This document shows positions 1,084 to 24,638 of a DNA stretch of 39,789 nt, one piece after another. Position numbers and translations under genes: made by a program. Origin of the DNA: Bernardetiaceae bacterium (lineage in GTDB: Bacteria > Bacteroidota > Bacteroidia > Cytophagales > Bernardetiaceae); NCBI GenBank assembly GCA_020832465.1, contig JAFIER010000230.1, positions 1 through 39,789 of the forward strand, written 5' to 3'. Position 1 is the stretch's first letter; every line of letters begins with the position of its first letter. Under the pieces are notes generated by a model that saw nothing but the letters and a program-made list of their open reading frames with translations, was not told the DNA's origin and made no database searches.

Positions 1084-2997
1084 TCAAAAATGCAAAAAAG
1101 CCTCTTTGCTATTGGCATAAAGTTTAGCATTGATAGCCGCAAACTTATCAGCTGCACTGCGTCTAAAAAAGGCGTTGCTCGAGTAGCGTCCTGAGGATAA
1201 GAAATACATCTGCTCGTTTTCCGTGAGCATTTCAAAGTAATCATTTTCTGCATCTTTACCAATAAAGAAATTATCATAATTGATAATCACATTAAACTTT
1301 TTACCAATTTCATCAAAAATCATACGCACTTGTTGCTTAAAATGTTTTACATCGGCAGCCGTATAAAGGTCTATACCTTCTAAGTTCATAAAAAGCAAAT
1401 TTTTATCCGCCTCATAATGGCATCGCGATTTCATATCGAGCACTTCTTCCCTTCTCAGGCCAAGTAATGCAGGCTCAAATATGCGTGCGTCCATGAGTTT
1501 TAAATTATCAGAAATAATGGGTACAAACCCCATTTTATCTAAAATATCTTTTTGCAAATCTATACCTGGTGCAATTTCTATGAGTTCCATACCCTTTTCA
1601 GTCAATTTAAAAACAGCTCTTTCTGTAATGTAATACACTGTTTGTGCCCTTTCCGTGGCATACTTACCGCTGTATGTAATTTGTGAAACTTTAGATAAAA
1701 ATTTACAATTTTCAGTATCCTTGATAATATGCAATTTACCATCTCTGACTTCAAATTGAGCTTTTGTAGTAAAAGTTCCCAAGAAATATACTGATTTTGC
1801 ATTTTGACTGATATTGATAAAGCCTCCAGCGCCCGCAAGTCTATCGTGAAAACGACTTACATTGACATTGCCCTCACCGTCGGCTTCTGCCATACCGAGA
1901 AAGGCTTGGTCTAAGCCCCCTCCGTCATAAAAATCAAATTGTGATGGTTGTGGAATAATTGCATCGGCATTGGCTACGGCCCCAAAACTAAGCCCGGCTG
2001 CGGGTATCCCACCAATGCCACCAGGCTCTACAGTAAGTGTGATATAATCTAAAATATTCTCTTCTTTTGCTACCGAAGCTACCCCTTCGGGCATACCAAT
2101 ACCGAGGTTTACAATGGCATTGATTTTAAGAAACATAGCCGCTCTGCGGGCAATAATTTTACGCTCATCGAGGGCTATATTGGGTATAGATGAATCGGGA
2201 ATGCGAATATCTCCAGTATAAGCTGGATTGTAAGGCTCTGCAAAGGTTTGGTCGTGGTGCTCGGGCGGTGCAACTACAATTGCATCGACAAGAATCCCCG
2301 GAATGACTACCATTTGTGGATTCTGACGCTGCCTTGTTGTTATACGCTCTACCTGCACAATAACTACCCCACCAGAGTTCTTTACGGCTTGCGCCGCTGC
2401 AAGCGAATCCAGAATAAGAGCCTCTTTTTCCATTGTAATATTTCCTTCGGGATCAGCCGTTGTACCACGTAACAAGGCAATTTGTATTGGAAAAGTTTTA
2501 TAAAAAAGATAGGTATCGCCTTCAATATCAATACGTTTTACAAGGTCTTCTGTTGTTTTTGTATTGATTTTTCCACCCTCAAGGGCTGGATCTACAAAAG
2601 TATGCAATCCGACTTTGCTAATCAGCCCGGGTTTGCCTGCTGCAATATCCCTAAAAAGTTGGCTAATAATTCCTTGTGGGAGATTATAGGCTTCAATTTT
2701 ATTTTGAAGGGCTAGTTTACCAATTTTGGGCGCAAGCCCAAAATGCCCTCCAATCACACGGCGCAGCAAGCCTTCGTGCGCAAAATGATTCAAACCACGC
2801 ATTTTGCCATCGCCTTGCCCGGCAGCATACACCAAACTTAACTGCTTGGGGGCGGCCGTCTGAACAAATCGCTCCTCGAGCGCAACTGCTAAATGCTCGG
2901 CAAAACCCGCACCAATAAAACCGCCTACAAGGACGGTATCGCCATCTTTTATCAATTCTACGGCATCTTGAGCCGATACTATTTTGTTGCGTAACAT
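1084..2997 (-). CDS. acyl-CoA:acetate/3-ketoacid CoA-transferase family protein (YdiF-like), 637 aa
   Basis: The N-terminal 520 aa are colinear with YdiF-type CoA transferases (DGDTVLVGGFIGAGFAEHL; LSLVYAAGQGDG; EAYNLPQGIISQLFRDIAAGKPG; VDPALEGGKIN; ALLRGTTADPEGN). An extra ~110-aa C-terminal extension is not recognised. Confidence 0.7.
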   Translation of the reverse strand: MLRNKIVSAQDAVELIKDGDTVLVGGFIGAGFAEHLAVALEERFVQTAAPKQLSLVYAAGQGDGKMRGLNHFAHEGLLRRVIGGHFGLAPKIGKLALQNKIEAYNLPQGIISQLFRDIAAGKPGLISKVGLHTFVDPALEGGKINTKTTEDLVKRIDIEGDTYLFYKTFPIQIALLRGTTADPEGNITMEKEALILDSLAAAQAVKNSGGVVIVQVERITTRQRQNPQMVVIPGILVDAIVVAPPEHHDQTFAEPYNPAYTGDIRIPDSSIPNIALDERKIIARRAAMFLKINAIVNLGIGMPEGVASVAKEENILDYITLTVEPGGIGGIPAAGLSFGAVANADAIIPQPSQFDFYDGGGLDQAFLGMAEADGEGNVNVSRFHDRLAGAGGFINISQNAKSVYFLGTFTTKAQFEVRDGKLHIIKDTENCKFLSKVSQITYSGKYATERAQTVYYITERAVFKLTEKGMELIEIAPGIDLQKDILDKMGFVPIISDNLKLMDARIFEPALLGLRREEVLDMKSRCHYEADKNLLFMNLEGIDLYTAADVKHFKQQVRMIFDEIGKKFNVIINYDNFFIGKDAENDYFEMLTENEQMYFLSSGRYSSNAFFRRSAADKFAAINAKLYANSKEAFLHF

Positions 2998-3293
2998 AAT
3001 TTACTCGCTGTATTTAAGGGTGTTTGTTTTCTGTAGAATAAACCTACTTTAAAACTACTGATTTTTTTTCTAAATACAGTGTAGTGGTGCATAAATTAAG
3101 AGTTTTTGAGTTATTCATCATAAAGTTCAAAGGCTGTAAATTGTTTTAAGTCAGTTAGCTTGGAAATTTACACCAAAAAGTTAAAATTTGTTTTGAAATA
3201 AAAAAATAACTTTGTACCTTGATCTTACGTTTTGATTTATAACGCCATAACTCGAATATTTAACCATTCATTAGCAACGTGCAAAAAGCGGTG

Positions 3294-3308
3294 TTGATAT
3301 CATATCAA
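3294..3308. promoter_or_regulatory. perfect 15-bp palindrome ttgatatCatatcaa 31 bp upstream of the SIR2-like gene start
   Basis: Read directly (7-bp arms around a central C). Placed in the 340-bp intergenic region where a promoter or operator for the 3339-7557 cluster would sit. Confidence 0.3.
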
Positions 3309-3338
3309 AAAACTAAGTATCTTAACTAACTAAACCCC

Positions 3339-4289
3339 ATGCCCGTACCAGATTATATTTTGGATAACATCATAGATAGCATTACCCATGGGAGCTGTAT
3401 CCTTATATTGGGTTCGGAGTTTCAGCAGCCACTCAAAGCGGAGCTGCTTACTTATTTGGGCTATCCCGAGAATAAAAATATTGAGTACCACGATGGTGAT
3501 TTTTTTTATTTCCAAGATAAGGCAAAGCTCACTGTAAAGAATCGCATAGGCAAGCGCATTCAGGGTTTTTATAACGAACATGAAATTCCTGATTTGTATA
3601 AAAAATTAGCGCGCATTCCCTTTGCGAGCTATGTATCACTCAACCCCGATATTTTACTTAATCGGGCTTTTGATGCCTTAGCTTTTGATTATGAGTTTGC
3701 ATATTACTGCAAAGGCGTAGCTATGAACGTCCCCGTAGAGCAACTTTTACCCGATAAGCCTTTGATTTACAACCTTATGGGGAGTATCAATAACTATGGT
3801 TCTATGATACTCACGCAGGAGGATTCTTACGACTATTTGATGTCTGTTTTAGATGAGTATAAATTTGATGACGGCTTAAAACAAAATCTTAGAAATATGG
3901 AAAATATTGTATTTTTAGGGGTTTCTTTTGACCGCTGGTATTTTAAGTTTTTAATCAAACTTTTGGGCATACAAGGCATAGAGCAGTTTGCTTTTGGCAA
4001 ATACGAAAACCTCGATAACGCCTCCAAACTTTTTTGCGAAAGCCACTTAGATATTACTTTTATCGATGACAATGTCGAGGAGTTTGTAGATGTGCTTCTC
4101 GAGCGTTGTGCAGAAGACGAAGTAGAACTAAGAAAACCCCTGCGCTTAGAAGAAATGATAGAAAAACTCAACTTTTTAAGGGAAGAGGAAGCTATTACCT
4201 CAGACCTAACTAAAAAATTTGAGCTCAAACAGCGCATTCCTGAGTTGGAGAGACAAATAGACGATCTTCGTACCCAAATAAATAGTTAA
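3339..4289 (+). CDS. SIR2-like (SIR2_2/ThsA-type) domain protein with C-terminal coiled coil, 316 aa
   Basis: A Rossmann-like start GSCILILGSEF. A block YVSLNPDILLNRAF resembles the TTNYD..LE motif. LIYNLMGSINNYGSMILTQEDSYDYL resembles KLHGS....lTe.DY. VFLGVSFDRWYF resembles the fIGYSl.D motif. The last ~60 aa are a heptad-rich charged helix (LRLEEMIEKLNFLREEE...ELERQIDDLRTQI). Confidence 0.5.
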   Translation: MPVPDYILDNIIDSITHGSCILILGSEFQQPLKAELLTYLGYPENKNIEYHDGDFFYFQDKAKLTVKNRIGKRIQGFYNEHEIPDLYKKLARIPFASYVSLNPDILLNRAFDALAFDYEFAYYCKGVAMNVPVEQLLPDKPLIYNLMGSINNYGSMILTQEDSYDYLMSVLDEYKFDDGLKQNLRNMENIVFLGVSFDRWYFKFLIKLLGIQGIEQFAFGKYENLDNASKLFCESHLDITFIDDNVEEFVDVLLERCAEDEVELRKPLRLEEMIEKLNFLREEEAITSDLTKKFELKQRIPELERQIDDLRTQINS

Positions 4290-4294
4290 AATTT

Positions 4295-5938
4295 ATGAAA
4301 TCTCGTTACCCTGGCGCAAACTCTTTTCAAGAGGACGATAGTCCGCTTTTCTTTGGGCGCGATAAAGATATTCGAACGCTCTCAAGCCGCATTCTAAGTA
4401 ATACGATTACCGTTTTGCATAGCAAATCTGGGCTAGGCAAAACATCTCTTTTACAAGCTGGCGTGCTCCCGCGCATTACAAAACAAAAGGATTTTCTAAT
4501 TATCAAAATTCGCTTAGGTGCAGCAGATTCAAGTGGCTCGCTGCCGCCTTTGCAAACCTTACAGCAAGCCATACCCAAAGAATCTACCTGGGCTGACGAA
4601 ATGCTCGATGACTCCCTCTGGAGTAGCATTAAAAAGCTCGAGCTTATGGGCAAACACAAAATTATTGTTGTTATAGATCAATTTGAAGAGCTTTTTAGCT
4701 ATCAAGAACAGGATATTATACATTTTAAAAATGGTATTGCTGAAATGATTAGCGAAAATATCCCAATCCGATTGCAAGAACCTATCAATGCTGCCTTAGA
4801 TGCCGATGAAGAAAATGAAGATGAAAACGAAGACCTCGAGCTGCTTTTTATGCCCGCTGATATCAAGATAGTTTTTGCTATTCGTTCAGATAAATTTAGC
4901 CTTTTGGGTAGAATCGCTGATAAAATTCCGACACTATTACGAAATCAATACGAATTGCAAGCCTTAGACAAAAAGGGCGCAAAAGATGCTATACTCAAAC
5001 CCGCTAATGCAGAAGGTGATTTTTACTCCGCACCTTTTGTTTATACAGAGGACGCTGTAAGTAAAATTTTGAAATACCTCACAGATAGCGATACACAACC
5101 CATAGAATCTACGCAGCTACAAATTCTTTGCGATAAAATCGAAAAACTACAACTCAAAGAAGTAAAAGTAGAAGACATTCCTGATTTTGAAGACATATTT
5201 TCAGATTTTTACTACGATACGCTCGAGCTTATAGAAGAGAGCGAACGCCTCGCTGTAAAGCGTTTTGTAGAAAACGAACTGGTAAAAAAAGGACAGCGCA
5301 TCTCACTAGATCGCAACGTATGTGAAGAGTTCGTAACGGATAAGCATCTTAGTATCCTTGTCAATGCACACCTTGTAAGAGAAGAACGCAATAATTTAGG
5401 AGGTACAAACTACGAACTAGCCCACGATACGCTACTTAGCCCTATTATCAAATCTAAAGAAATTCAAAAAGCTGAAGACGATAGACGTGCGCAAGCACAA
5501 AAACTCAAAGAAGCGGAAGCACTAGCCGAAAAAGAACGTGCGGAGTTGGCAAAAGCCCAAAAGCAAGTGCGAACCGTAAGACGTGCCCTAATTTTTGCCG
5601 TAGTCATGCTTGTGCTCGCTTTTGCAGGATTAGGCTATGCCCTTATCAAAGAAAAAGAAGCACGTTTGGCAAATAAAGATGCCAAAGAACAACGCGATTT
5701 TGCTAAATCAAAAGAAAAAGAAGCACTTGAAGCACTTGCAAAATTTCAAGAAGAGCAAGCCGCAAAAGAAAAATTTACCTTTGATGCACTTAAAAAACGA
5801 GCTAGTACTATTATCGACGCAGGAGGTTGCCCCGATGACCTCCTCCGAGAAATGAAAGAAATAACCGAAAACCACCCCGAAAAAAAACAATTAGAAAAAG
5901 AAACTTATGAACTTAAAACACGCTCAAAATGTCCGTAA
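4295..5938 (+). CDS. STAND/AAA+-type P-loop NTPase with C-terminal coiled coil and a single transmembrane helix, 547 aa
   Basis: FFGRDKDIRTL precedes Walker A HSKSGLGKTSLLQAG. Walker B is KIIVVIDQFEELF (hhhhDQFEE type). A long helical domain follows, then a charged coiled coil (AEDDRRAQAQKLKEAEALAEKERAELAKAQKQ). One hydrophobic helix ALIFAVVMLVLAFAGLGYALI is followed by a ~95-aa K/E-rich tail. The gene starts 6 bp after the SIR2-like gene and overlaps the next gene by 10 bp. Confidence 0.6.
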   Translation: MKSRYPGANSFQEDDSPLFFGRDKDIRTLSSRILSNTITVLHSKSGLGKTSLLQAGVLPRITKQKDFLIIKIRLGAADSSGSLPPLQTLQQAIPKESTWADEMLDDSLWSSIKKLELMGKHKIIVVIDQFEELFSYQEQDIIHFKNGIAEMISENIPIRLQEPINAALDADEENEDENEDLELLFMPADIKIVFAIRSDKFSLLGRIADKIPTLLRNQYELQALDKKGAKDAILKPANAEGDFYSAPFVYTEDAVSKILKYLTDSDTQPIESTQLQILCDKIEKLQLKEVKVEDIPDFEDIFSDFYYDTLELIEESERLAVKRFVENELVKKGQRISLDRNVCEEFVTDKHLSILVNAHLVREERNNLGGTNYELAHDTLLSPIIKSKEIQKAEDDRRAQAQKLKEAEALAEKERAELAKAQKQVRTVRRALIFAVVMLVLAFAGLGYALIKEKEARLANKDAKEQRDFAKSKEKEALEALAKFQEEQAAKEKFTFDALKKRASTIIDAGGCPDDLLREMKEITENHPEKKQLEKETYELKTRSKCP

Positions 5939-7557
5939 AAAATGTAATCAAAAGTATATTGCTACTACTCATTATATGCAACTCAAGCTTTTATCAAGCG
6001 CAGGCGCAGAGTAGCTACCAAGAAGCAATACAGCAAGGCGATGATGCCTTCAAAAAAGGAGAGTTCAAAAAAGCGATGCAAAAATACTTCGCCGCCGAAG
6101 CCTTCGAGCCTTCTAAAAGAAGTATAGTGCAAAGCAAAATTACGAGGGTCTTTGATAAGGTCGATGGTTTGCGAGAGCAAGCCCTACAAGCTGAAAAGCG
6201 AGCACGAGACTCCGAAGCCGATGCAATCAAAAACCTTGAACGTGCCTTGAAAGTGAGTTACGGTACGTATTTTTATGAAAATAGGTTTGCACCCGCTTAT
6301 AACTCAATAAATTTTCCTACAAATGGCTACCTCGGAAAATGCTATTTTATGGATAAATACGGCGACTTTGTGCCTAAACTCAAACTTTGGGAAGCTATTA
6401 TCAAAAGTTTTGGTAATGTGAATGGTAATGATTTTTTTATCGCTGATTATGCTATTGTCAAGAAAGAAAATGAACTTGTGTATTTATTGGATACGCTCGG
6501 AAATACGTTTTTTTATTATAACAATGAACCAAATAGCGAAAATAAACAACTTGCAGAAGTGCTTATCTTGAAGGGAAATGAAAATATAGAAGCGTTTAAT
6601 AATCAAATAGATGCAAATAAAGCACTTAAAGCACTCTTTTTAACGCCTAATGGTTTCGAAAATATCAATATAAATTTGTCAGAACGCATCGAGACACTTA
6701 CTGATTTGACAGATTTTATATCCCTTAATATAAATCTTGGCGCACTGCCCGAGAGTTTTACCAAACTCAAAAATCTTCGCAAAATCGATATTTATGCTTC
6801 AGATTTAAGCCATTTGCCCACAGGGTTTGATGCCTTAGAAAATATAATGGTTCTGAGCCTTACCGAGAACAAATTTCAAACTTTTCCAGAGGATTTGTAC
6901 CGTCTTAACAAACTCGAAGCACTGGACATTTCATATAACCAAATTGAGCACATCAACTGGTCGAATCTTGATTTGCCCAATTTGCATGAACTTAATTTGA
7001 GTTTTAATCGCCTCAATACGATTGCACCCGAAATAGGCAAATTGACAACACTGCGAAGCCTAGACCTCAGTAATAATCGTTTCGAAAAACTCCCTCAAAG
7101 CATACAAAAACTCACAAAACTCAAAGCATTTTATAACAACTTCCATAATTTTGAGCAAATACCACAATCTCTATTTGCGCTATCTAATTTAGAAACACTT
7201 GGACTCTCGAGAGGAAAAATTCAGGCTATACCTAACGAAATCAGCAAACTCAAAAATCTGAAAAACCTCAACCTATCTATGAATACCATTGAAAAAATAT
7301 CGCCGAATATCCAAACACTCAAATCGCTCATCGCTTTGAATCTGGCATTCAATAAAATAGAAAAACTACCAAACGAAATAGGAAAATTAGAAAGCCTGCG
7401 CATCTTAGAACTCGATGGCAATAAGCTCACCACAATACCCAAAGGTCTCTCACAACTCAAAAACCTTAAAGTACTTAGCCTTACGGATAATCCAATCCCC
7501 TACGAAGAGCAAGAAAAAATTCGTAAGATGCTACCCAATACTGAAATTAAATTTTGA
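5929..7557 (+). CDS. secreted leucine-rich-repeat (LRR) protein with N-terminal helical (TPR-like) region, 542 aa
   Basis: Signal peptide (ILLLLIICNSSFYQAQAQ). About 12 tandem 22-24-aa LRR units (LxxLxxLxLxxNxIxxIP, e.g. LEALDISYNQIEHI, LHELNLSFNRLNTIAPEI, LRSLDLSNNRFEKLPQSI). Confidence 0.8.
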   Translation: MSVKNVIKSILLLLIICNSSFYQAQAQSSYQEAIQQGDDAFKKGEFKKAMQKYFAAEAFEPSKRSIVQSKITRVFDKVDGLREQALQAEKRARDSEADAIKNLERALKVSYGTYFYENRFAPAYNSINFPTNGYLGKCYFMDKYGDFVPKLKLWEAIIKSFGNVNGNDFFIADYAIVKKENELVYLLDTLGNTFFYYNNEPNSENKQLAEVLILKGNENIEAFNNQIDANKALKALFLTPNGFENININLSERIETLTDLTDFISLNINLGALPESFTKLKNLRKIDIYASDLSHLPTGFDALENIMVLSLTENKFQTFPEDLYRLNKLEALDISYNQIEHINWSNLDLPNLHELNLSFNRLNTIAPEIGKLTTLRSLDLSNNRFEKLPQSIQKLTKLKAFYNNFHNFEQIPQSLFALSNLETLGLSRGKIQAIPNEISKLKNLKNLNLSMNTIEKISPNIQTLKSLIALNLAFNKIEKLPNEIGKLESLRILELDGNKLTTIPKGLSQLKNLKVLSLTDNPIPYEEQEKIRKMLPNTEIKF

Positions 7558-7577
7558 TAAATGACTGATACCTTCAA

Positions 7578-7608
7578 AACTCACAGTTTTCCAAAAAAAC
7601 TGTGAGTT
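7578..7608. terminator. hairpin aactcacagtt-(9-nt loop)-aactgtgagtt, 21 bp after the LRR gene stop
   Basis: Perfect 11-bp stem read directly. No U-tract follows. Member of the GAACT(A/C)ACA palindrome family. Confidence 0.35.
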
Positions 7609-7723
7609 ATAACCTGCCAACCCCGTTGAAAAATGTAGTATATTTTGAAGCGGTTATGCTACGAAACTAAATTTTCACCCTAGCTCCTGCTGATGCGCAT
7701 CGAGAATAAAAGAGAAGACTCTT

Positions 7724-8296
7724 ATGTTTGAATCTACAAATTTTGAAATAGAAAAGGACAGAAATACAATTTTAATTAAGCGTCAGTGGTTTAGAGTAGA
7801 GCATATACTCATCGCATTGGTAGCTTTAGCTTGGAATGGATTTATGTTTTTTTGGATTTTTATGTTTTTTAAAAGCAATGCTGAAACAAAAATAATAGTT
7901 TTTATGACTGTTGCCGCTACTATGCACATATTGATTGGTTGGTTCATGGCTTACTACTCGCTCTGTGCTTTTTTTAATAAGACTTATATACGGCTTACAA
8001 AGCACAAACTAAGTATAAAACACGAACCACTACCCTCTTGGCAAAAAAATATCGATATCGATGTATCAAAAATCAAGTATTTCTGGGTAAAAAGCGGTAT
8101 TTCAAAAAATATAGAACAAAGCAGTTCTCAAAAACCCGTTTATTATCTGTACAATTTGTGGTGTATGGATACAAATCAAAAAACTTACAAACTTATAAGC
8201 TATATTCACACAAAAAAATCGCCTGAACCCTTAGAAAAAATAAAACAAGAAATGGAGCAGTTTTTAGCATGTCATAAAACACAAAAATTAGACTGA
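7724..8296 (+). CDS. small membrane protein, two TM helices then a possible bacterial PH (bPH_2/DUF304-like) domain, 190 aa
   Basis: Two hydrophobic helices (ILIALVALAWNGFMFFWIFMFF; IIVFMTVAATMHILIGWFMAYY) are followed by YIRLTKHKLSIKHEPLP...IDVSKIKYFWV. This resembles the Y.iT..R....G......iPL..I motif of membrane bPH proteins. Weak. Confidence 0.35.
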   Translation: MFESTNFEIEKDRNTILIKRQWFRVEHILIALVALAWNGFMFFWIFMFFKSNAETKIIVFMTVAATMHILIGWFMAYYSLCAFFNKTYIRLTKHKLSIKHEPLPSWQKNIDIDVSKIKYFWVKSGISKNIEQSSSQKPVYYLYNLWCMDTNQKTYKLISYIHTKKSPEPLEKIKQEMEQFLACHKTQKLD

Positions 8297-8502
8297 TGAT
8301 ATTCCAAAGCAAAGAAAGAAAAAAATTATAGCTTTTTTTGGGGGGGAGGGGGCTGCATTATCTTATCAAATCTTCCAAAAGAATAATCGCATAAATTTGC
8401 TTTTTTTGAGGGGAGTTTGTATTATTGATTTTGTTTGGAACGGTGCGTGGAGATGAGTGCCATTTTAGAAAAAATAACCTATAATGAATTATTGGACTGA
8501 AC

Positions 8503-8656
8503 GGGTGTACGTCAAGTTGGTAAATCAACTTAGATAGTTTAAGCCTTCACAGTTTTTTAAGCTGTAGCCCGAAGCTCCAGCTTCGGAAGTGGCTTATAAC
8601 GAAGCTGGAGCTTCGTACTACAGGCAGTAAAAATTTAGCAAAATTGTCGTACACCC
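8503..8656. repeat. MITE-like palindromic element, copy 1 (154 bp)
   Basis: Termini gggtgtacg...cgtacaccc form a perfect 9-bp inverted repeat. Interior holds a 16-bp stem cgaagctccagcttcg / cgaagctggagcttcg (8570-8585 / 8600-8615). Ends (tcaagttggtaaatc ... ttagcaaaattgtcgtacacccg) are shared with the copy at 17910-17989. Confidence 0.55.
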
Positions 8657-8866
8657 GACTGAACTGAGCATAGAATAAGATATTCGTGGCAACAATAAAA
8701 TGTATCGAGACATCACGACCAAGTACAAAGATTATAACATCATGAGTGCGTTGGTTTTGAGAGAATTTTTGTATCAGGTTTAAAAATATCAATAATGAAA
8801 TACTATCTACATAGATTTATTCAAGAAAAACTGCAAAGCGTTACCGATAATAACGCTTACTTATTT

Positions 8867-10084
8867 ACTGAAGTTACGCAGAAAGACTTCTTATAAATAT
8901 ATTTAAATCTATTTATGTATTTTATGCGGCTAATGCTTCGCCTATGGGTGTAGCTACTTGCAGACGCATATCGGAAACCTCGCGCCAAGCATTTTTTAGC
9001 GCATTTATGTATATTTTACGTTTGAGTGCATAATGATTATGACCTAATCGCTTAGACAAACACTCCCAGTCAAATGTAGCGTAAAGTACTGCAAAACAAT
9101 GATTTATCTGTGTTCTTATACTATGAGCAGGTGATTTACCATAGTTAAAGTTGGTTTTAATACTGCGATGATGTTCCTCTACTTTCCACCGTTTTTGATA
9201 GATTGTAGTCATTGCCTCGTAAGAAAGGGATAGTTCGTTACTCACAAGATAGATAATGCCCTGACTTGAGTCCTTGTTTGTAAAGACTTGTTGGCAAAGA
9301 CGTAGCGGAAAAGCTACCCCCTTTACATACACATCATAGACACTTCCCTCTTCTAACGGTAACGAATCTACCCTTTCATATCTTCCAGCTTTTTTGTCCT
9401 CTAAACTTAAAGCAACCCCATGATTGTCGTTAAGAGGCAGAACAAACTTTAAATTTAAATCATTCAAATGCAGCATGTTAGCCTTCCCATTATACCAACT
9501 ATCAGCAAGTACAAAGTCAATGGCAAGTTGATTGCTTACGCTTTGCGATACAATACGTCTAAATTTGTCATTTTTTGTTTCGCTACTTTTTCGCTTCTGC
9601 TTACCTGTTTTTTTATCCTTAATAATCTGGTCTTTGATAACAAAATCAAAAGATACAGGAATGCTATAATCAGACACATAATAAAGTGCGCTAACCTGAT
9701 TAATGCCCTTAAGACAACGTCTTTTACTGTGATCAAAGTGCCAAGCTATTAAACCATTGACCTTTGAATGGGCTTTTTCTTGAATATGATCATCAATAAT
9801 CAGTAATTTTAAATCCGTAGTCTGTGCACTTAGCCGGCGTACCGTAGGCTTAACCAGCTGCCATAAGTCTTTACCTGTGTAATCACGGGCAGATAAAAAA
9901 CGTGTGCACTTATCATGTGATATTTCATTATCGGTAAGAGCCGATAAGTTCGTTGCAGTCGCCTGATTAAAAGCAACTTGCAAAAATTGCGAATAAATAG
10001 CCAACATTTTTTTGTCCATAATCACAAATTTACGTAAATTGCACCTATATAGCAAAAAAAAAATGCGTAGTGCGTAACTTCAGT
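8867..10084 (-). mobile_element. IS4-family insertion sequence (1218 bp), apparently intact
   Basis: Perfect 14-bp terminal inverted repeats ACTGAAGTTACGCA at 8867-8880 and 10071-10084 (reverse complement). Flanked by 5-bp direct repeat TATTT (8862-8866 and 10085-10089). Encloses one transposase ORF. Confidence 0.7.
8922..10055 (-). CDS. DDE transposase, IS4 family, 377 aa
   Basis: DDE-type layout with candidate catalytic Asp residues (LLIIDDH; VLADSWY). C-terminal YREK signature YQKRWKVEEHHRSIKT typical of the IS4 family. Confidence 0.7.
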   Translation of the reverse strand: MLYRCNLRKFVIMDKKMLAIYSQFLQVAFNQATATNLSALTDNEISHDKCTRFLSARDYTGKDLWQLVKPTVRRLSAQTTDLKLLIIDDHIQEKAHSKVNGLIAWHFDHSKRRCLKGINQVSALYYVSDYSIPVSFDFVIKDQIIKDKKTGKQKRKSSETKNDKFRRIVSQSVSNQLAIDFVLADSWYNGKANMLHLNDLNLKFVLPLNDNHGVALSLEDKKAGRYERVDSLPLEEGSVYDVYVKGVAFPLRLCQQVFTNKDSSQGIIYLVSNELSLSYEAMTTIYQKRWKVEEHHRSIKTNFNYGKSPAHSIRTQINHCFAVLYATFDWECLSKRLGHNHYALKRKIYINALKNAWREVSDMRLQVATPIGEALAA

Positions 10085-13313: not shown

Positions 13314-15245
13314 TTAAAGATTCGCCTCTCCGATTTTACGCACTTTTAAGCGGTCTTGAATCTCGTCGAGAATAGCTGGATCGTCAATCGTCGAGGGGGT
13401 TTGAAAGTCTTCACCATCGGCAATATGTCGCATAACTTTACGCAATATTTTTCCCGAACGGGTTTTGGGAAGTCGCTCCACGATGCTGATGCGCTTGAAG
13501 CAGGCTACAGCTCCGATTTTTTCTCTTATCAAATGGACTAAATCCTTCTCAAGTGCTTCTTCGCTCATATCCTTACTTTCGTTTTTGAGTACGATAAGCC
13601 CGACGGGCACCTGCCCCTTAAGGCTGTCTGCAATTCCGATAACAGCACATTCGGCGACAGCCTTATGCCCTGCCACGATTTCTTCCATCTCGCCCGTAGA
13701 AAGCCTATGCCCCGAGACATTGATTACATCATCTATACGCCCCATGATGTAAAAATAATTATCCTCATCGCGATAGCCCCCATCACCAGCCAAGTAATAG
13801 CCTTCGTATCGCTTGAGATAAGCATCTACGAAGCGTTCGTTGTTTTGCCAAAGCGTGCAAAGCGTACCAGGCGGGAGCGGGAGTTTGATAGCGATGGCGC
13901 CCTCCTCGTTCGGACCGAGTACATTGCCCATAGGATCTAACACCTCGACTTGATAGCCCGGCACGGGCAAAGCCGAAGAGCCTATTTTGATTTCTTTGAG
14001 CTCAATACCGGCAGGATTAGCAAGCATAGCCCAACCCGATTCGGTTTGCCACCAATGGTCTATAACAGGAATTTTGAGTTTTTCTAAACTCCACTCGAGC
14101 GTAGCAGGGTCGCAGCGTTCTCCAGCTACAAAAAGCGTACGCAATGAAGATATATCGTACTTTTTGATAAGCTCGCCTTCGGCATCTTCTTTTCGTATGG
14201 CACGAATCGCCGTCGGTGCTGTAAACATCACACTCACTTTATGCTCTTCTATCATACGCCAAAATGTGCCCGCATCAGGTGTGCGTATCGGCTTGCCTTC
14301 GAAAAGTACGGTCGTACAACCCGAAATCAAAGGAGAATATACAATATAAGAATGCCCCACAACCCAGCCGACATCAGAAGCTGCCCAAAAAACTTCGCCG
14401 GGCTTAGCACCATAAATTTTATCCATACTAAATCGCATCGCCACAGCATGACCGCCATTATCACGGACAATACCTTTGGGCTTACCCGTCGTACCTGATG
14501 TATAAATGATATAAAGTGGGTGAGTGCTCTCGACGGGCACAGGATCAACGGGCTGCGCCTGCGCTACTGCACTTGCCCAATCTTTATACAAATCCTCGCC
14601 CTCGATAGACTGCGGGTAAGTCTCTCGTTCAAAAAACAAAATTGCCGTAGGCTTGTGCTCTGCTTGTGCGACAGCTTTATCTAAAAGCGGTTTGTAGGGA
14701 ATGACTTTATCAAACTCAATACCACAAGAAGCAGAGAGCAACACCTTAGGTTGTGCATCATCAATCCTCACGGCTAACTCATGCGGCGCAAAGCCCCCAA
14801 AAACTACAGAGTGAATAGCTCCAAGCCGTGCGCAGGCCAGCATAGCCATAGCAGCCTGTGGCATCATAGGCATATAAATTACGACCCTATCCCCTTTTTC
14901 AACGCCCATACTTTTCAGTACGCCCGCAAGGCGTGCTACTTCATCTCGAAGTTCACGAAAAGTATATTGCATTTTTACGCCTGAGGCGGGCGAATCATAA
15001 ATCAAGGCTAACTGCTCAGCACGCCCATTTTCTATATGATAATCCAAGGCTAAATAAGAAGTATTGAGCATACCACCCTCATACCATTGCGCATAGCCGT
15101 GTGTGTTCTGACTTAAAATTTGCTTGGGAAATTCATACCAAGCTATTTTTTCGGCTTCATTACGCCAAAAATCTTCTGGATTTTGAATGCTTTGCTGATA
15201 AACCTCCTGATAGGTAGCGGTTACCTCTGTGTTTGATGTACTCAT
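13314..15245 (-). CDS. prpE: propionyl-CoA synthetase (AMP-forming acyl-CoA synthetase, PrpE-like), 643 aa
   Basis: Full-length colinearity with PrpE/Acs. YQQSIQNPEDFW. AMP-binding motif YTSGTTGKPKG. VVFGGFAPHELAVRIDDAQPKVL. DDVINVSGHRL. LPKTRSGKILRK. The C-terminal STIDDPAILDEIQ tail is PrpE-like rather than Acs-like. Confidence 0.8.
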   Translation of the reverse strand: MSTSNTEVTATYQEVYQQSIQNPEDFWRNEAEKIAWYEFPKQILSQNTHGYAQWYEGGMLNTSYLALDYHIENGRAEQLALIYDSPASGVKMQYTFRELRDEVARLAGVLKSMGVEKGDRVVIYMPMMPQAAMAMLACARLGAIHSVVFGGFAPHELAVRIDDAQPKVLLSASCGIEFDKVIPYKPLLDKAVAQAEHKPTAILFFERETYPQSIEGEDLYKDWASAVAQAQPVDPVPVESTHPLYIIYTSGTTGKPKGIVRDNGGHAVAMRFSMDKIYGAKPGEVFWAASDVGWVVGHSYIVYSPLISGCTTVLFEGKPIRTPDAGTFWRMIEEHKVSVMFTAPTAIRAIRKEDAEGELIKKYDISSLRTLFVAGERCDPATLEWSLEKLKIPVIDHWWQTESGWAMLANPAGIELKEIKIGSSALPVPGYQVEVLDPMGNVLGPNEEGAIAIKLPLPPGTLCTLWQNNERFVDAYLKRYEGYYLAGDGGYRDEDNYFYIMGRIDDVINVSGHRLSTGEMEEIVAGHKAVAECAVIGIADSLKGQVPVGLIVLKNESKDMSEEALEKDLVHLIREKIGAVACFKRISIVERLPKTRSGKILRKVMRHIADGEDFQTPSTIDDPAILDEIQDRLKVRKIGEANL

Positions 15246-18948: not shown

Positions 18949-21525
18949 TTATGTAGCACTATCAATTGAGCCTATATCTATAATTTTGGTGCTCTCCTCT
19001 CCAAACTGACTCACAATCCGAATCGCAATTTTTTGATTAGGACTTTTGACTTCAATAGGATGAGATTGATAACCGTACAGACGGTCAAAAGCCTCTTCAT
19101 CAATTTCTATTTTTAACGTAGCTTCGAGCTTTTTCTTTGTACTTTCTTTGGCTAAGTTATCTAAGCCTCTACGCCAGTTTTTGAATGCGTCTTTATCGCC
19201 ACCGCAAAAGAATATCTGCCTAACGATAAAGCTGCTGCCATCATAATCATCATCGACCATCCAATAAGCAATATCGTGTAAGTCTCGCGCTTTAACTTCA
19301 TCTCTGATAGGGTCGTAAATATCTAAACCCTTGACTTCTACAAAAACACCTGTCTCGTCTTTTTTCAGGTCAATATCTGGCTCACCAATCGTTACAAAAC
19401 TTGCAGCTGACTTAGCAGGTTTCTTTTTCAAACCTTCTTGTAATAAATCATCGTGTATGCGGACTTTTGTAACTTCAAAAGTACCTACACTTTTCGTGTA
19501 CTGACCGCTTTCAATATCGCTTTCAAAGCTAAAACCTAAAATAATCAACCAATTCGCATCACCACGTTGGCGACACTCTTTAATTGAATCGTTTACTAAC
19601 TTCCTACTCACCGTACCAAACTTAGGTCCGATATGAAAATAGGCTTTCTCTTCACCTTTATCTGTAATGTAGAAACCCTCTGCATGTAAGGCTTCGCCAG
19701 ATAAAACCTCCACAGAACGAAAAACAACTTGCTCGTTTTTTCTGCCATTTTTGATGCCCGCACTTAGCAAATGTTCTTTGATAACCGCCTCGAAATTTTC
19801 ATTGGTTTCTAACTTCAAACGGTCATTATCTAACTCATCAGGGCTTGTAGGTTCAAAGTTTTGTAAAGTTTCTACTGTAAAAGGACCACTTACGCGAAGC
19901 ACCTTTTTGTCTATCTCGGGCTGATCGTAAAGCGTCTCCGTAGCAGGTGGCTCGTCGTTTGCCAATGCTTTAAGCGTGATATGCGGTACGGTTTTGTACA
20001 CAAAACCATGACGTATGTCCTCGTTTTGAGTATCGTAAAGCTTATAATAAGGATATACTGCCGTCATCAAACGCTGCTTGGCTATGTTCAAAGCTATCCG
20101 ACTCGTATCGATAGTGATCCAACGCCTACCCCACTGCTCCGCAACATAAGCCGTCGTACCACTCCCACAAGTAGGATCTAAAACCAAATCGCCCGGATCA
20201 GAAGTCATGAGTAAACATTTCATTATAGCTTTCTCATTTGTTTGGACTACATAAACTTTTGAGCTACTAAAACTCTGCTTTGTGTCTGACCAATGATTTG
20301 TTATTTCTGTAACAGGAAAATCATCTAAATATCTTTTATACATAATTGAACGCCCTGTTTTTAGTATTCTATCTTTTTCAGCCAGATTATCCATGCCCTC
20401 TTTTGTTGTTGACCAGTGCCTATTTGATGATGGTCTATAAACTTGACCATCAAACTTAAATTCAAAAGAACCTTTTTGAGACCATCCTGAACTTCTTAAA
20501 TCTCCTATGGCAAATACTTTTGCTCCATCAGGTATAAGTCGTTTGTCTAAAAACTCCTCTTTGGTTACATTGCGTACAGTACCATTAGGAAGCTCAAGCC
20601 ACTTGTAATTACTACCTATCTCCTTATCCATAAATAGTTTTCTCGATTTTAAGTCATCAACAGACTTAGCATACCAGATAATATAGTCTGATGTTGAAGA
20701 TAAAGTTTTAGTTGAAAAACTTGTGGTTGTCTCAAAACTTATCAAACTCACAAAATTTCCACTTCCAAATACTTCGTCCATTATATTTCTCACCAGATGC
20801 ACATTTTCGTCAGAAATTTGTACGAAGCAGGAGCCCGTTTTGTTGAGTAGTTCTTTGGCGATGAGCAGTCGGTCTCTCAGGTAGGATAGGTATGAGTGGA
20901 TACCGAGTTCCCAAGTGTCTCTGAATGCTTTGATTTGTTCGGGTTCTGCGGTGAGTGCATCGTCTTTTCCGTCGGCGACATTTCTGTCACCCATTTTGAC
21001 TTGCCAGTTTCCGCCATATTTTATGCCATAAGGAGGGTCTATGTATATGGTTTGAACTTGCCCTGCCATACCTTCTCTTTCGAGTAGGCTTGCCATGACG
21101 AGGTGGCTATCTCCTTGAATGAGTCTGTTTGTCCAGCCGTTTTTGTGTTGGTAATACTCTGATATTTTATCGAGTTCGTCTTTCTCGAGGGCATTTCCAA
21201 AAAGTTCATTGGTATCAAAGAGTTCTTTTTGGTCGCTTTCTTTTATTTTATATAGGTTTTGTATCAGGGTTTCGGGTGCAACATGTTCGTGTCGGTATAG
21301 GCTTCTTATATCTATACTGAGCGCGTCCTCTCGGTCGTCGTTTCCGTATTTGTTGAGCCAAAAGAGTTCTGGGTCTTTTCCTCGGTGCACAATAGGATTT
21401 TTGGGGATTTCGATTTTGTTGCTTCCGTTTTGCACTTTGTCATTCGCATCTTCATATCCAGCTTCTTCTTTGCTTGGGATATGTGAGCGTTGGCTATTTG
21501 TATGCTTTGTGGATTGTACTTTCAT
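18949..21525 (-). CDS. mod: Type III restriction-modification DNA methyltransferase (Mod, N6-adenine, beta class), 858 aa
   Basis: Motif [18 protein letters not shown] precedes motif [28 protein letters not shown] (permuted beta-class order). Start is 2 bp after the res stop. ~390-aa C-terminal extension after motif I. Confidence 0.8.
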
Positions 21526-21527
21526 TG

Positions 21528-24500
21528 TTATATACTTTGAATTTTTTCGGTTAATTGATTTCTGATATTTCTGATGTCATTTGCAATTTCGATAAAATGC
21601 CATTCGTGGTATTGGTATTTATCTTTGAGTGCATTGGCGGCGGGCAGCCATCGGTTTTCGACAAACCATTTTTTTTCGTCTTTATCTTGACTAAAACCAC
21701 TAATTTCGATAATAAGGTTTTTGAAGATTTTGGGATTTTGTTTAGATTTTACTTTGACGATAAAATCTGGGAAATATTTTTTGTCCTCTCCATCTTTTTT
21801 GTAAGGGATTGCAAAATCTAAGAAATCATTTTTTACATAAGCGATTACATTATCGAGTTCTTCTAAGGTTTTGGCACAAACTCCTTCCCATGTACTATCC
21901 ATAACGACATAATTAACGTGGCTTTTTTGTGTGGCATAGACTTCCCGTGTTGTGTTTCCGTTTACATATCTCGTACTGCCAAATGGATTGTAGTTGTTGA
22001 ATACGGGTTTGATAAACTCGATGGTATTTCGTTGAGTATTTATACCTCTTATAATGTGATCTACGGCTTTTTTGTGCTCATGAAAATAGAGTGTTTTTTT
22101 GAAATAAGGTTCACGATTAAGCACTGTAATTTTATGGTTGTACCATTCGGTTACTATACCTTTTAGTGTAGCAAATTTTTGAAATTCGGGTTCTCCTTCG
22201 TCATTACTAAAATGATATTTCATAAGCTCCACCGTAAGTTTGAAGATAATTTCTTGGTCTCGCTTTTCTAAGACATCGGCGAGTTGTATTGTTTCTTGTT
22301 TTGCAGAGACTGCGCTTTGCATTGTAGTTACTTTGGGTACTTTTGAGCCGTCGATTTCATAATTTTCTAAATTCGCAAAGTCGTGCGTGAGCGGTGCTTC
22401 TAAGTTTTCGGTTCTGTATGCAATAATATTTGGGAATGTAATTTCCATTTCCTGCTCTCTTTCCACAAGTGCATTGATATGGTGCATGTTTACGGGCTTT
22501 ACAACAGTATTCGTTTGTCCTGCTTTAAACATATTGAAAGGTACGCCTATAATGTGTGCATACTCTGGGGGGAATTTTTGAATGACAATTTTTCTTTTGT
22601 CATCTGTGGGGTTTCCGTCTTTATCATATCCTTGCAAAAAGTAATTGACTCTTCTTAATGCTCTTCCTGCTACTTGCTCGCAAAGTAGCTGTGAGCCAAA
22701 GGCACGCAGCCCCATGATGTGTGTAACGGTATTGGCGTCCCAGCCTTCGGTAAGCATAGATACAGAAACGACGCATCTTATATGTGCGCCTAATTTATTT
22801 GTCTGCCCTACTGTATTTACGACTTCACGCAATATTTCAGCATCGGATATTTTTTCTGTGCTTCCTTGCCCGTGCATGCGTGCATAGTCTTTTTTAAACT
22901 CTTCGATTTCTTTAGCAAAGATTTTTTTAAACTCTTTATTGATTTGTTCACCGTTTTCTAGTGCATCGCTATCAATAAGCAATGTAGGCGGTTTTTTTCG
23001 GGGTTTTGTTGTATCGGGGTCATAATTAGAAAATAAATCTTTTGCACCTACTTGAATATGCGTACCTCCCTCTCTATCAGTATATTCATATCCAGCGATG
23101 TATTTATATACTTCTTTGGATACGCTGGTATTATTACAGACTACAATAAATACAGGCGGTGTAGAAAATAAGGACACCCCGTCTTCTTGTATACTTCTTA
23201 CTCCTTTGTCGTATTTTACGTAATGTGAGTAAAACTGCTCTAAGGCATTTTTTACAAGTGCGGGTATTTTAGGTGCTTCTTCTCTAAACCTATCTCCTTT
23301 TGCTTTTGCTTCTGCTTTTCGTTTGCTTACACCTTTTTTGGGAAGTTCTTTTTTGACATGTTCATACAGGTTTTTGAGCACCGGCTTATCTATACTCTGA
23401 GTATCGTCAGTCTCTGGCATAAATGGAATTTTGACAAGTCCACTTTCTATTGCCTCCACTAAACCAAAGTCTGATACTACCCATGGAAACAAACTATAAG
23501 CCGTATAGCCCGAGCCATTTAGGTAATAGGGGGTAGCGGAGAGGTCATAGACCGCCTGCATTTTGAATTTTTGCGCAATATTGCGCAAACCGCTGAACCA
23601 GACGGCTGCTTTAGCATTTTCATCACCTTCATTATCGGTAGTTTTACTTTTAGACTTAGGTAGGTAGCAATGATGTGCCTCGTCGTTTAGTACTAAAAGT
23701 CGGCTTCCTGTTTTAAATTTTCCCAAGACACGCTTTACTACTTGCGAAAAACCTTCTTTATTATCTGTATCTATTTTTTCTCCTTTGATATTTGTTTTTC
23801 CGTCAAATGGAGTTTTTTTATTGCCTTGAAGTATTTTAGGTTCAAAGCTATGATAATTCGTAATGATTAGCCTTGCATTGAGATTTTGCAAGCGAGAAGT
23901 CATATTTGAAGGTACTAATCCTCGTATATAATAGTAATCTTCTCTATTATGTGTATGATTTTGATTATCAACAAATAGTACATTCAACCTGCTTTTGATA
24001 GTGATACCGGGAGCTACCACTAAAAAGTAATCTGCAAAGCGAGTATCATTTCTGTATTCTTGTCTGTTGAAATAGTGGTAACAAATTAAACAAGCCATAA
24101 CAACAGTTTTACCACTTCCTGTAGCCATTTTGAAAGCTATTCTAGGCAGTTGGTCTTCTGTATTTTTACTTACTGTTTGCTGTCCTTTACGTAAAAGGTT
24201 TAGAATATGTTGCCCTGGATTTGATTTCTCTGCTACTTCGTTAAACCATATCGCAGTTTCTATAGCCTCACGTTGTGCAAAAAACAGCTTTTTTACGGCA
24301 TGCCTTTCAGGATTATTAAACCAAAAGTTCAAAAGTTGCTTTGAAATTCTTGTTGTGTTGGGATAGCTACTAGCTCGCCACGCTCCTACCTCTTTTCTAC
24401 ACAGATTTACGATATGTTCTTCTTGACTACCAGCACTTTCATTCCATTCAAATATTTCTTTGCCTCCTTTTCGCTTAGTTGGCGCAACAGGAGTACTTTC

Positions 24501-24638
24501 TTTGAATATTCGTCGTCCTTTTCTGATTTCCGTATAGTCTAAGCTACCGTCACTATCAGTGCTATAATATAAAAGAGGTTCATCGTACGGACTATTTAAT
24601 ATCGGATTATCTTTGTTTGCAGTTTCTACTAAATTCAT
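21528..24638 (-). CDS. res: Type III restriction enzyme Res subunit (SF2 helicase + PD-(D/E)xK nuclease), 1036 aa
   Basis: Q-motif [10 protein letters not shown]. Motif [12 protein letters not shown]. Motif [12 protein letters not shown]. Motif III LSATPY. Motif [12 protein letters not shown]-terminal nuclease-like PDFIVKV...IIEISG. Confidence 0.8.

Follow-up and report, generated by a model that had tools for sequence, protein, structure and literature searches.

The stretch analysed here (39,789 nt, hereafter the window) is a contig from a metagenome-assembled genome (MAG) assigned to the Bernardetiaceae (Cytophagales, Bacteroidota), where the three genes under discussion are known from sequence. 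Open reading frame (ORF) calling places them, here A, B and C, one behind the other on the plus strand, encoding respectively a SIR2-like protein, a nucleoside triphosphatase (NTPase) of the nSTAND1 family with a single predicted transmembrane (TM) helix, and an exported protein with leucine-rich repeats (LRRs). The original prediction for this locus had described three co-directional, tightly packed genes as a candidate conflict system, and the packing is as described: the stop of A (TAA 4287-4289) is separated from the ATG of B (4295) by 5 nt, not 6, and the ATG of C (5929) lies ahead of the stop of B (5936-5938), giving the 10-nt overlap that had been announced. The start of the cluster at position 3294 has to be moved, since from there the frame meets a TAA (3330-3332) and the ORF of A begins with the ATG at 3339. 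We lean, with modest confidence, towards reading the trio as a split, membrane-spanning STAND ("NLR-like") receptor, which would carry a signal from the outside to the inside of the cell and have death or arrest as its output.

Protein B is the centre of this reading. It matches nSTAND1 (PF20703) over residues 5-409 (profile positions 2-369 of 379; E = 8.9e-29; 101.7 bits against a cut-off of 27.1), and the STAND-type NTPase of the original prediction can therefore be named more specifically than was done there. The search for homologues returned 73; statements on invariance in B, as well as its AlphaFold model, are based on 47 homologous sequences, and the model is confident (pLDDT 89.7). Foldseek matched the cytoplasmic part to ORC/Cdc6, NLRC4, ZAR1, CED-4 and the NB-ARC of NRC1. 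The predicted Walker B of the hhhhDQFEE type (D128 to E132) and the GLGKT of Walker A are both there and conserved throughout, R197 and D199 are likewise invariant, and in the ELAHDTL motif further on H377-D378 resembles the MHD motif of NB-ARC/STAND switches. With the two Walker motifs, R197/D199 and H377-D378 invariant, and with the fold shared with NLRC4, ZAR1 and CED-4, B looks like a competent STAND switch.

In the model of B a single helix, residues 378-508, runs through the membrane. Among the first 61 homologues (P0001-P0061), 57 have its TM segment at the equivalent position, as do all the neighbour loci described below, and two of the four homologues without it are short and maybe truncated. 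Since B has neither an N-terminal signal peptide nor an N-terminal TM helix, and this one TM helix only, the NTPase module of 430 residues would be cytoplasmic and the last 96 residues would lie outside the cytoplasm. This N-in/C-out topology, predicted from the missing signal peptide of B, the signal peptide of C and the domain fusions of relatives, is supported above all by the fusions. In the tail, the hairpin GGCP...(Y/H)PDS...CP (HPE and SKCP in the B of the window) and its Cys pair recur in two homologues (P0004, P0011) and in two of the neighbour loci (L011, L012). Cys pairs are also present in the N-terminal modules of several third-gene proteins, and their occurrence in both places fits an oxidising compartment.

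Protein C carries a Sec signal peptide followed by an N-terminal module, a WG-repeat-like domain and the LRR solenoid, so that the secreted protein with a long LRR array of the original prediction is borne out. That prediction had left the secreted sensor without a link to the membrane, having missed the TM helix of B (residues 433-451), which explains it. Along its whole length C shares 27% identity with the third gene of a metagenomic locus with the same layout (L003), its first ~105 residues being much better conserved than the remainder, and in the third gene of another relative (L008) the region equivalent to the WG-repeat-like domain matches WG_beta_rep (E = 2e-10). When 1.84 billion cluster representatives were searched exhaustively with HMMER, the N-terminal module of C (N-module) proved to define a family with 298 representatives at E <= 1e-3 and 128 at E <= 1e-10. 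Its motif is invariably some 44 residues away from the N-terminus, and 116 of 150 representatives have an equivalent N-terminus with a hydrophobic stretch. The C-terminal domains vary, with LRRs in 57/113, WD40 in 14/113 and FGE in 3/150 of the proteins scanned. A word-indexed search of 5.8 billion proteins with the N-terminal 270 residues of C (5929-6738) returned no match, not even C itself, and such an index may lose short or compositionally biased queries. We infer that the N-module would dock on the coiled-coil/hairpin tail that B exposes outside the cytoplasm.

Protein A matches Pfam SIR2_2 above the curated cut-off (E = 1.5e-7), in line with the domain originally predicted, and the PADLOC profiles LmuA(SIR2) (E = 1.5e-7) and ThsA (E = 1.5e-5, weak and confined to the SIR2 part), two matches that reflect the common SIR2 fold only. 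Searched by sequence against solved structures, A alone gave nothing relevant, and a 17-sequence profile of its clade reached ThsA (E = 0.0023); the best Foldseek matches of the AlphaFold model (pLDDT 80.9) are the SIR2 domains of ThsA (E = 4e-9), DSR2 and KomC, with probability 1.0. As modelled, the SIR2 Rossmann-type fold of A is not in doubt. Its pocket departs from the canonical one: when the clade profile is aligned to ThsA (8wc0), TTNYD pairs with sLtPD, where the position of N112 is mostly T (N102, within SLNPD, in the A of the window), YKMHG pairs with an invariant YNLxG, where the position of H152 is M, L, F or V in 17/17 (M147 in the window), and the GAGxS loop is cut down to "LG". 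Because the clade is without the catalytic His, depletion of NAD+ by A is doubtful, and of the SIR2-type NADase effector originally proposed the fold stands while the activity is in question. EfAvs5, an active SIR2 NADase, carries Asn (Asn180) at the His position (PMC11897194), so that the His is not absolutely required; a hydrophobic residue there, as in the clade of A, is unusual. In the clade Y144, N145 and Y166 are invariant, which argues against a decayed pocket; Y144-N145 precede the lost His by two residues and face the same side of the strand. Canonical NAD+ depletion by A is possible, though somewhat less likely than not.

The C-terminus of A is a site of domain exchange, occupied by the effector-associated domain (EAD) EAD11 (PF19964) in most homologues, by EAD7 (PF19960) in one locus (L002) and by TIR in three homologues (P0079, P0082, P0089). 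The A of the window has there only a helical hairpin of ~50 residues, and the AlphaFold models of A and B, with helical or coiled-coil C-terminal regions, agree with the coiled coils that had been predicted for both proteins. EAD11 was considered for this tail and rejected (hhalign of an 8-sequence EAD11 alignment against residues 257-316, probability 0.2%), and a relaxed Pfam search of the tail returned coiled-coil noise only.

Table 1. Features of genes A, B and C and of the surrounding DNA (nucleotide positions in the window; residues of the respective protein in brackets).
Feature	Position	Strand	Basis or description
Gene A, SIR2-like protein, 316 aa	3339-4289	+	ORF; Pfam SIR2_2; NCBI label "SIR2 family protein"
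A, SIR2-fold domain (1-262)	3339-4124	+	Non-canonical pocket: N102, M147; invariant P141-L-I-Y-N145-x-x-G148
A, C-terminal helical hairpin/coiled coil (270-315)	4146-4283	+	DSSP helices 270-286, 290-315
Gene B, predicted single-pass membrane nSTAND1 NTPase, 547 aa	4295-5938	+	ORF; Pfam nSTAND1; identical to NCBI "hypothetical protein JJT94_14775"
B, nucleotide-binding domain, helical domain and winged helix, predicted cytoplasmic (1-375)	4295-5419	+	Secondary structure, fold matches
B, Walker A (43-51), SKSGLGKTS	4421-4447	+	S45, G46, G48, K49, S51 invariant in 47 sequences
B, Walker B (123-132), IIVVIDQFEE	4661-4690	+	D128, Q129, E131, E132 invariant
B, ELAHDTL motif (374-380)	5414-5434	+	E374, H377, D378, L380 invariant
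B, predicted cytoplasmic stalk (378-432), charged, coiled-coil-like	5426-5590	+	Part of one continuous helix of ~130 residues
B, predicted TM helix (433-451), IFAVVMLVLAFAGLGYALI	5591-5647	+	Kyte-Doolittle 19-mer score 2.6
B, predicted extracytoplasmic tail (452-547)	5648-5935	+	Coiled coil + helical hairpin; helices 514-526, 530-543; C512, C546
Gene C, exported LRR protein, putative sensor, 542 aa	5929-7557	+	ORF; LRR Pfam matches
C, signal peptide (1-26)	5929-6006	+	n-region K4, K8; h-region ILLLLII; AQA 24-26, predicted cleavage after AQA26
C, N-terminal module (27-105)	6007-6243	+	TPR-like hairpin (QGDDAFKKGEFKKAMQKYFAAEAFEPSK) + coiled coil
C, WG-repeat-like beta domain (112-200)	6262-6528	+	"YFYENRFAPAY...YFMDKYGD"; pairs with the post-TM region of P0005
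C, LRR solenoid, 12 repeats of 23 aa (260-535)	6706-7533	+	LRR_8 E = 4.6e-35; LRR_14 E = 5.9e-29; 23-aa periodicity
CoA-transferase gene	1084-2997	-	
ORF with two TM helices, 190 aa	7724-8296	+	TM helices predicted; starts 167 nt after C
Insertion sequence (IS) element with DDE transposase	8922-10055	-	Directly before the LmuB-like ATPase gene
LmuB-like SMC/Rad50-type ATPase, 902 aa	10132-12840	+	PADLOC LmuB E = 3.6e-14; AAA_23, AAA_21, SMC_N
Acetyl-CoA synthetase gene	13314-15245	-	
Type III restriction-modification pair, then YhcG/DUF1016 PDDEXK nuclease	18949-24638, 25240-26337	-	N6_N4 methylase 858 aa + ResIII helicase 1036 aa
Caspase protein, 1124 aa	26401-29775	-	N-terminal Peptidase_C14 E = 1.4e-26; C-terminal alpha/beta-hydrolase DUF7379/DUF676

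The arrangement is kept in at least 12 further independent loci, which provides the co-conservation of neighbours by which the original prediction had proposed to check the cluster. These neighbourhoods were mostly reached by exact-protein look-ups, and a single-sequence scan of genome contigs gave only one of them (L001). A SIR2-like gene and a TM-nSTAND1 gene precede that of a 1021-aa secreted LRR protein in a metagenome (L003), that of a 1088-aa secreted protein with WG repeats and LRRs in a MAG (L008), that of a secreted FGE-sulfatase protein, placed after an inserted RAYT transposase, in a Cytophagaceae MAG (L001), and, with EAD11 on the SIR2-like protein, that of a secreted FGE protein followed by HRDC and reverse transcriptase genes in a Saprospiraceae MAG (L005); in another MAG (L006) the contig ends after SIR2-like-EAD11 and TM-nSTAND1. 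On plasmid pHALHY02 of Haliscomenobacter hydrossis DSM 1100 (L012) a SIR2 family protein (WP_013769005) and a TM-nSTAND1 protein (WP_013769006) are followed by two secreted WD40 proteins (WP_013769007, WP_013769008), and in a locus found from SIR2-like homologues (L013) SIR2-like-TIR and TM-nSTAND1 are followed by a secreted 461-aa protein. The would-be sensor is fused to the NTPase in L002, a MAG in which CHAT-EAD7 and SIR2-like-EAD7 precede nSTAND1-TM-LRR (P0005), in L007, a metagenome in which a split SIR2-like gene precedes nSTAND1-TM-FGE (P0013), both without a third gene, and in L014/L015, likewise found from SIR2-like homologues, in which SIR2-like-EAD11 precedes nSTAND1-TM-WD40. SIR2-like homologues stand directly upstream of TM-nSTAND1 in L001, L002, L003, L005, L006, L007 (split), L008, L012, L013 and L014. 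The first gene is SIR2-like in 11 loci and belongs to an unrelated family of ~695 residues in L009 and L011 (Ferruginibacter), which were found from N-module homologues and in which TM-nSTAND1 and a secreted LRR protein follow. The members of this family (L009 2202-4289, L011 2-1228) have no Pfam match and are 37% identical over 393 residues; they are a candidate new effector family of these systems.

The third gene follows the form of the NTPase. In the loci where the NTPase has a short tail and the downstream gene can be read, that gene encodes a signal peptide in 8/8 (the window, L001, L003, L005, L008, L009, L011, L012), and it belongs to the N-module family in 7/8, being found in L001, L003, L005, L008, L009 and L011 besides the window; the WD40 proteins of L012 have a related but distinct Cys-containing N-terminal region. 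Fused NTPases have no separate secreted third gene. In P0005 the stretch "YFYDDKFALAY...YFINKQGD" directly after the TM helix pairs with the WG-like domain of C and the LRR array comes next, and the domains fused after the TM helix elsewhere are FGE-sulfatase (P0007, P0013, P0031), peptidoglycan-binding OmpA-like (P0039), WD40 (the gene of L014) and TPR. As the same domains are either fused after the TM helix or carried by a protein with a signal peptide, they would lie outside the cytoplasm either way. The secreted FGE genes of L001 and L005 moreover have as their 3' end the variable repeat (VR) of a diversity-generating retroelement (DGR), 83% identical to the template repeat (TR) beside the reverse transcriptase (RT), with the mismatches falling on TR adenines in 22/22 and 22/23 cases, respectively, and with the RT and HRDC genes adjacent. 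With the NTPase gene constant and the first and third genes variable, these loci show a constant core with a variable periphery, the pattern of conflict systems (Kaur et al., 2020, 2021). The hosts are filamentous Bacteroidota (Bernardetiaceae, Saprospiraceae, Haliscomenobacter).

Some of these loci carry further elements. The transposase between the NTPase and sensor genes of L001 (3790-4407) is a REP-associated tyrosine transposase (RAYT; Y1_Tnp-like), with REP-like palindromic repeats at 4402-4455 and 7433-7531, and in L010 an N-module LRR gene is likewise immediately preceded by a Y1_Tnp gene (1-333). About 1.1 kb upstream of the SIR2-like-TIR trio of L013 there is a gene for a patatin-like phospholipase (5145-5900), which may be an additional effector there.

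Neither the class to which B belongs nor its TM architecture is new to the literature. Kaur et al. (2021; PMC8195603, section 7) named nSTAND1 and placed it in conflict systems that join an effector or EAD, a STAND NTPase and an FGS or repeat "antigen receptor", systems that occur with DGRs and would serve multicellular bacteria as immune receptors, all of this by prediction. Their supplement lists "nSTAND1+TM" 412 times, nSTAND1+TM+BetaPropeller 278, nSTAND1+TM+TPR 22 and nSTAND1+TM+FGS 4 times; the supplementary tables contain none of the strings nSTAND1+TM+LRR, SIR2+EAD11, SIR2+EAD7 and SIR2+nSTAND1, the Haliscomenobacter locus was not found in the nSTAND1 file, and the main text has no discussion of membrane topology or SIR2 partners for nSTAND1. 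No mention of EAD11 in the relevant sense was found in the main texts of the literature examined. The likeness lies in the nSTAND1 family itself, in the succession of a variable effector, a constant NTP switch and a variable ligand-binding domain, in the use of EAD7 or EAD11, FGS domains and DGRs by relatives of the window, and in the enrichment in bacteria of multicellular type. The systems of Kaur et al. differ in that the effector or EAD is fused to the N-terminus of the NTPase, with genes for effectors bearing the matching EAD close by, whereas nSTAND1 begins at residue 5 of B with no N-terminal domain, and in relatives it is the SIR2-like protein, not the NTPase, that bears EAD7 or EAD11. 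In the window the modules are distributed over three polypeptides, with the LRRs on a Sec-exported protein that has an N-terminal module of its own; a sensor at the C-terminus of the NTPase polypeptide, as in those systems, is found in P0005, P0007, P0013, P0031 and L014. A DGR, frequent there, is present in L001 and L005, while the operon of the window has neither an RT nor a TR/VR pair.

Other systems with which the trio had been or could be compared stand further off. The statement that no named system has this arrangement holds insofar as no PADLOC v2 model recognises B or C and no Avs model matches B at E <= 0.1, but the kind was predicted by Kaur et al. (2021). Membership in the "ternary" systems of Kaur et al. 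(2020), which consist of a MoxR AAA+ ATPase, a vWA protein and VMAP or iSTAND, is to be dropped, as neither A, B, C nor their neighbours match MoxR, vWA or VMAP. Avs and Thoeris, invoked in the original prediction as an established pattern, are analogies whose defining features are lacking here. In Avs (Gao et al., 2022) an N-terminal effector, a central STAND and a C-terminal TPR-like sensor form a single polypeptide, against three proteins and a TM helix in the window. Avs5 has in common with the trio a SIR2-fold output, a STAND NTPase and a C-terminal sensor, defence needs the Walker motifs, and the active SIR2 of EfAvs5 lacks the classical His; Avs5 differs in being a single polypeptide of the cytoplasm, where it senses phage proteins, and in forming filaments (PMC11897194), whereas the window has a membrane NTPase, a predicted extracytoplasmic sensor and a hydrophobic residue at the His position. 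Thoeris combines ThsA (SIR2 or TM with a SLOG/Macro sensor) and the TIR protein ThsB. ThsA, a SIR2-SLOG NADase, is the closest solved structure to A, with alignable TTNYD and xHG strands, whereas the operon of the window has no SLOG, no ThsB/TIR gene and no catalytic His, and identity is about 15%.

Kaur et al. (2021, PMC8195603) and Dore et al. (2024, PMC10907252) proposed that DGR-targeted C-type-lectin/FGE domains coupled to STAND serve as antigen sensors that hypermutate. L001 and L005 resemble the DGR-diversified STAND or ternary sensors of Dore et al. in the C-type-lectin/FGE target, the adenine-specific VR/TR pair, the RT, the accessory gene and nSTAND1; in DGR 6 of that study nSTAND1 and CLec are one predicted cytoplasmic protein, whereas these relatives have a separate secreted target and a TM NTPase, and the window has LRRs in the sensor position and no DGR. 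Dore et al. also predicted some DGR targets to be periplasmic, and Kibby et al. (2023; bioRxiv 10.1101/2022.07.19.500537) remarked that bacterial NACHT proteins with TM regions may detect signals in the periplasm. The proposed general plan, with LRRs outside the cell, one TM helix and a death or signalling module in the cytoplasm, also recalls Toll-like receptors and plant LRR receptor-like proteins, an analogy only, since the cytoplasmic part has no homology to either, and the NTPase is nSTAND1, not NACHT. What would appear to be new is the splitting into separate proteins, with a sensor exported by Sec, together with the large family of N-modules and the linkage to a SIR2-like clade without the His.

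Put together, a split receptor could work as follows. C would be exported by Sec and would dock, through its TPR/coiled-coil N-terminal module, on the 96-residue tail of B, while its 12-repeat solenoid would bind a foreign or danger-associated ligand in the periplasm. In B, oriented N-in/C-out, the switch formed by the nucleotide-binding, helical and winged-helix domains would be tied to that tail by one continuous trans-membrane helix, along whose stalk engagement of the ligand might be passed on to trigger NTP-dependent oligomerisation of nSTAND1, by analogy with other STAND proteins, for which such oligomerisation is established. The oligomer would then recruit or activate the cytoplasmic SIR2-like A, with growth arrest or cell death, i.e., an abortive defence in a filamentous host of multicellular type, as the probable outcome. 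The action of A is the weakest step: it might consume NAD+ through a non-canonical pocket, or serve as an adaptor, a role that is possible because relatives hold EAD7, EAD11 or TIR at its C-terminal position. Going one step further, we consider it possible, though less likely than not, that the trio is a bacterial counterpart of a Toll-like or LRR-type immune receptor, in which a soluble periplasmic sensor, docked on a single-pass STAND protein by a dedicated and widely conserved N-terminal module, would detect an invader in the periplasm before, or without, its entry into the cytoplasm, and would signal across the inner membrane to SIR2-like or TIR death effectors; the invader would be represented by phage ejection proteins, predatory bacteria or delivered toxins, and the sensor by LRRs, WD40 or a DGR-hypermutated lectin.

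Several points weigh against a membrane-spanning immune receptor. With 5 K/R on either side of its TM helix, B cannot be oriented by the positive-inside rule. A is without the catalytic His, most members of its clade are also without the Asn, and the GAGxS loop is reduced. No EAD is detectable in A, and there is no N-terminal EAD in B, that could couple the two. Neither a DGR nor a phage gene lies near the system of the window; homologues of B were not found in phage records, which we count as neutral. An immune function would follow from the architecture and from the predictions of one paper, and the occurrence of EAD11 on AP-GTPase proteins, as in LRR-AP-GTPase-COR-EAD11 (listed in the supplement of Kaur et al., 2021, and present in plasmid DNA of H. 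hydrossis DSM 1100 as Halhy_6666), hints that SIR2-like-EAD11 proteins may be shared with, or serve, other systems.

The same receptor could also operate with A as a catalytically dead adaptor or regulator that binds the activated NTPase and relays the signal to other effectors through its C-terminal tail (a coiled coil in the window, but EAD7, EAD11 or TIR in other loci), or with A binding NAD or a nucleotide as a ligand. We regard this as a serious though less likely arrangement, which the altered pocket of the clade favours together with the constancy of the SIR2-like domain beside its changing C-terminal partners and with the presence of EAD11 on other systems of the same Haliscomenobacter genome. 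The locus with a CHAT protease (L002) points the same way, as the protease shares EAD7 with the adjoining SIR2-like protein and, the NTPase there being without an EAD, the EAD7 pair links the two effectors. Yet the A of the window keeps N102, and a pocket as conserved as that around Y144-N145 and Y166 is unusual for a dead enzyme; EfAvs5 is active with its His replaced, though by Asn; and with neither EAD nor TIR on A and no second effector in the operon there is nothing obvious to recruit. Whether the trio serves immunity at all is a separate matter, since a device for envelope or cell-cell signalling in filamentous gliding bacteria, in which a STAND switch replaces a histidine kinase for the recognition of kin or of contact, for programmed cell death in development or for the sensing of envelope damage, would also have its sensors outside the cytoplasm (including the peptidoglycan-binding OmpA-like fusion), would suit hosts of multicellular habit and the position of several loci among housekeeping genes, and would need no phage-derived trigger, of which none is known. 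We think it improbable, as the hypermutation of the sensor in L001 and L005 suggests open-ended, fast-changing ligands, the outputs (SIR2-like, TIR, CHAT) are of the death type, the first gene is swapped between families, and carriage on a plasmid and neighbouring IS elements and restriction-modification genes are marks of conflict systems.

Hardly credible, finally, is a chance neighbourhood in which C is a common secreted LRR adhesin or an internalin-like protein and A the LmuA-type partner of the LmuB-like ORF downstream, in a Lamassu system split by the IS. The matches of A to LmuA and of that ORF to LmuB, the IS between them, and the resemblance of the LRR proteins to type III effector and adhesin models would agree with it. 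LmuA adjoins the SMC-like ATPase LmuB in Lamassu, with or without LmuC, though, whereas here 5.8 kb with B, C, a further ORF and the IS lie between; A-B adjacency, with gaps or overlaps of a few nt, is found in 10 other loci without LmuB, P0005 carries the domains of C in fusion with the NTPase, and N-module genes follow TM-nSTAND1 in the great majority of readable short-tail loci. The Lamassu reading of A was rejected on this conservation of neighbourhood.

Around the trio, which with its neighbours lies between two housekeeping genes on the opposite strand, the window offers a modest defence-island setting. The ORF with two TM helices downstream of C has no match in Pfam, PADLOC or NCBIfam and is unrelated to the gene after the sensor of L003; it was rejected as a fourth conserved gene and is probably outside the unit. 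The DDE transposase and the LmuB-like ATPase follow within the same housekeeping borders. The latter, directly after the transposase and in an AT-rich stretch (GC 0.28-0.31 against about 0.38), is an orphan with no LmuA-type gene adjoining, and may be what the IS left of a Lamassu-like system, or another SMC-based system. Further on, the ResIII helicase of the restriction-modification pair has a C-terminus weakly like TnsA endonuclease, and the caspase protein agrees with the pairing of caspase and alpha/beta-hydrolase noted in conflict systems by Kaur et al. (2020). Scans of 2900-8900 for sigma-70 promoters (13 against 17.4 expected) and terminators (6 against 5.4 expected) did no better than shuffled sequence. 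At 3207-3214 (+), 125 nt upstream of the start of A, lies TAACTTTG, which fits the Bacteroidetes -7 promoter motif TAnnTTTG; with 2 found against 2.75 expected, this motif is not rarer in the window than by chance.

To our knowledge, every STAND/NLR-like defence protein that has been characterised in bacteria (Avs, bNACHT, CARD-NLR-type) senses its trigger in the cytoplasm. The trio offers a concrete, testable case for outside-in STAND signalling, whose functional steps we infer, and it comes with several handles: a compact operon of 4.2 kb, a homologous operon on a plasmid of the cultured H. hydrossis DSM 1100, a candidate docking pair in the tail of B and the N-module of C, and a SIR2-like clade with an altered pocket. 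Should the trio prove to serve envelope signalling instead, it would still be the first STAND NTPase shown to be a transmembrane receptor in bacteria. If the receptor reading is true, a STAND switch with its sensor beyond the inner membrane would show outside-in, receptor-type immune surveillance in bacteria, a structural parallel to animal Toll-like receptors and plant LRR receptors, with an exported and exchangeable sensor that is DGR-hypermutated in relatives; and the N-module family, with at least 298 clusters at 50% identity, would be an unrecognised repertoire of exchangeable extracellular immune sensors in Bacteroidota.

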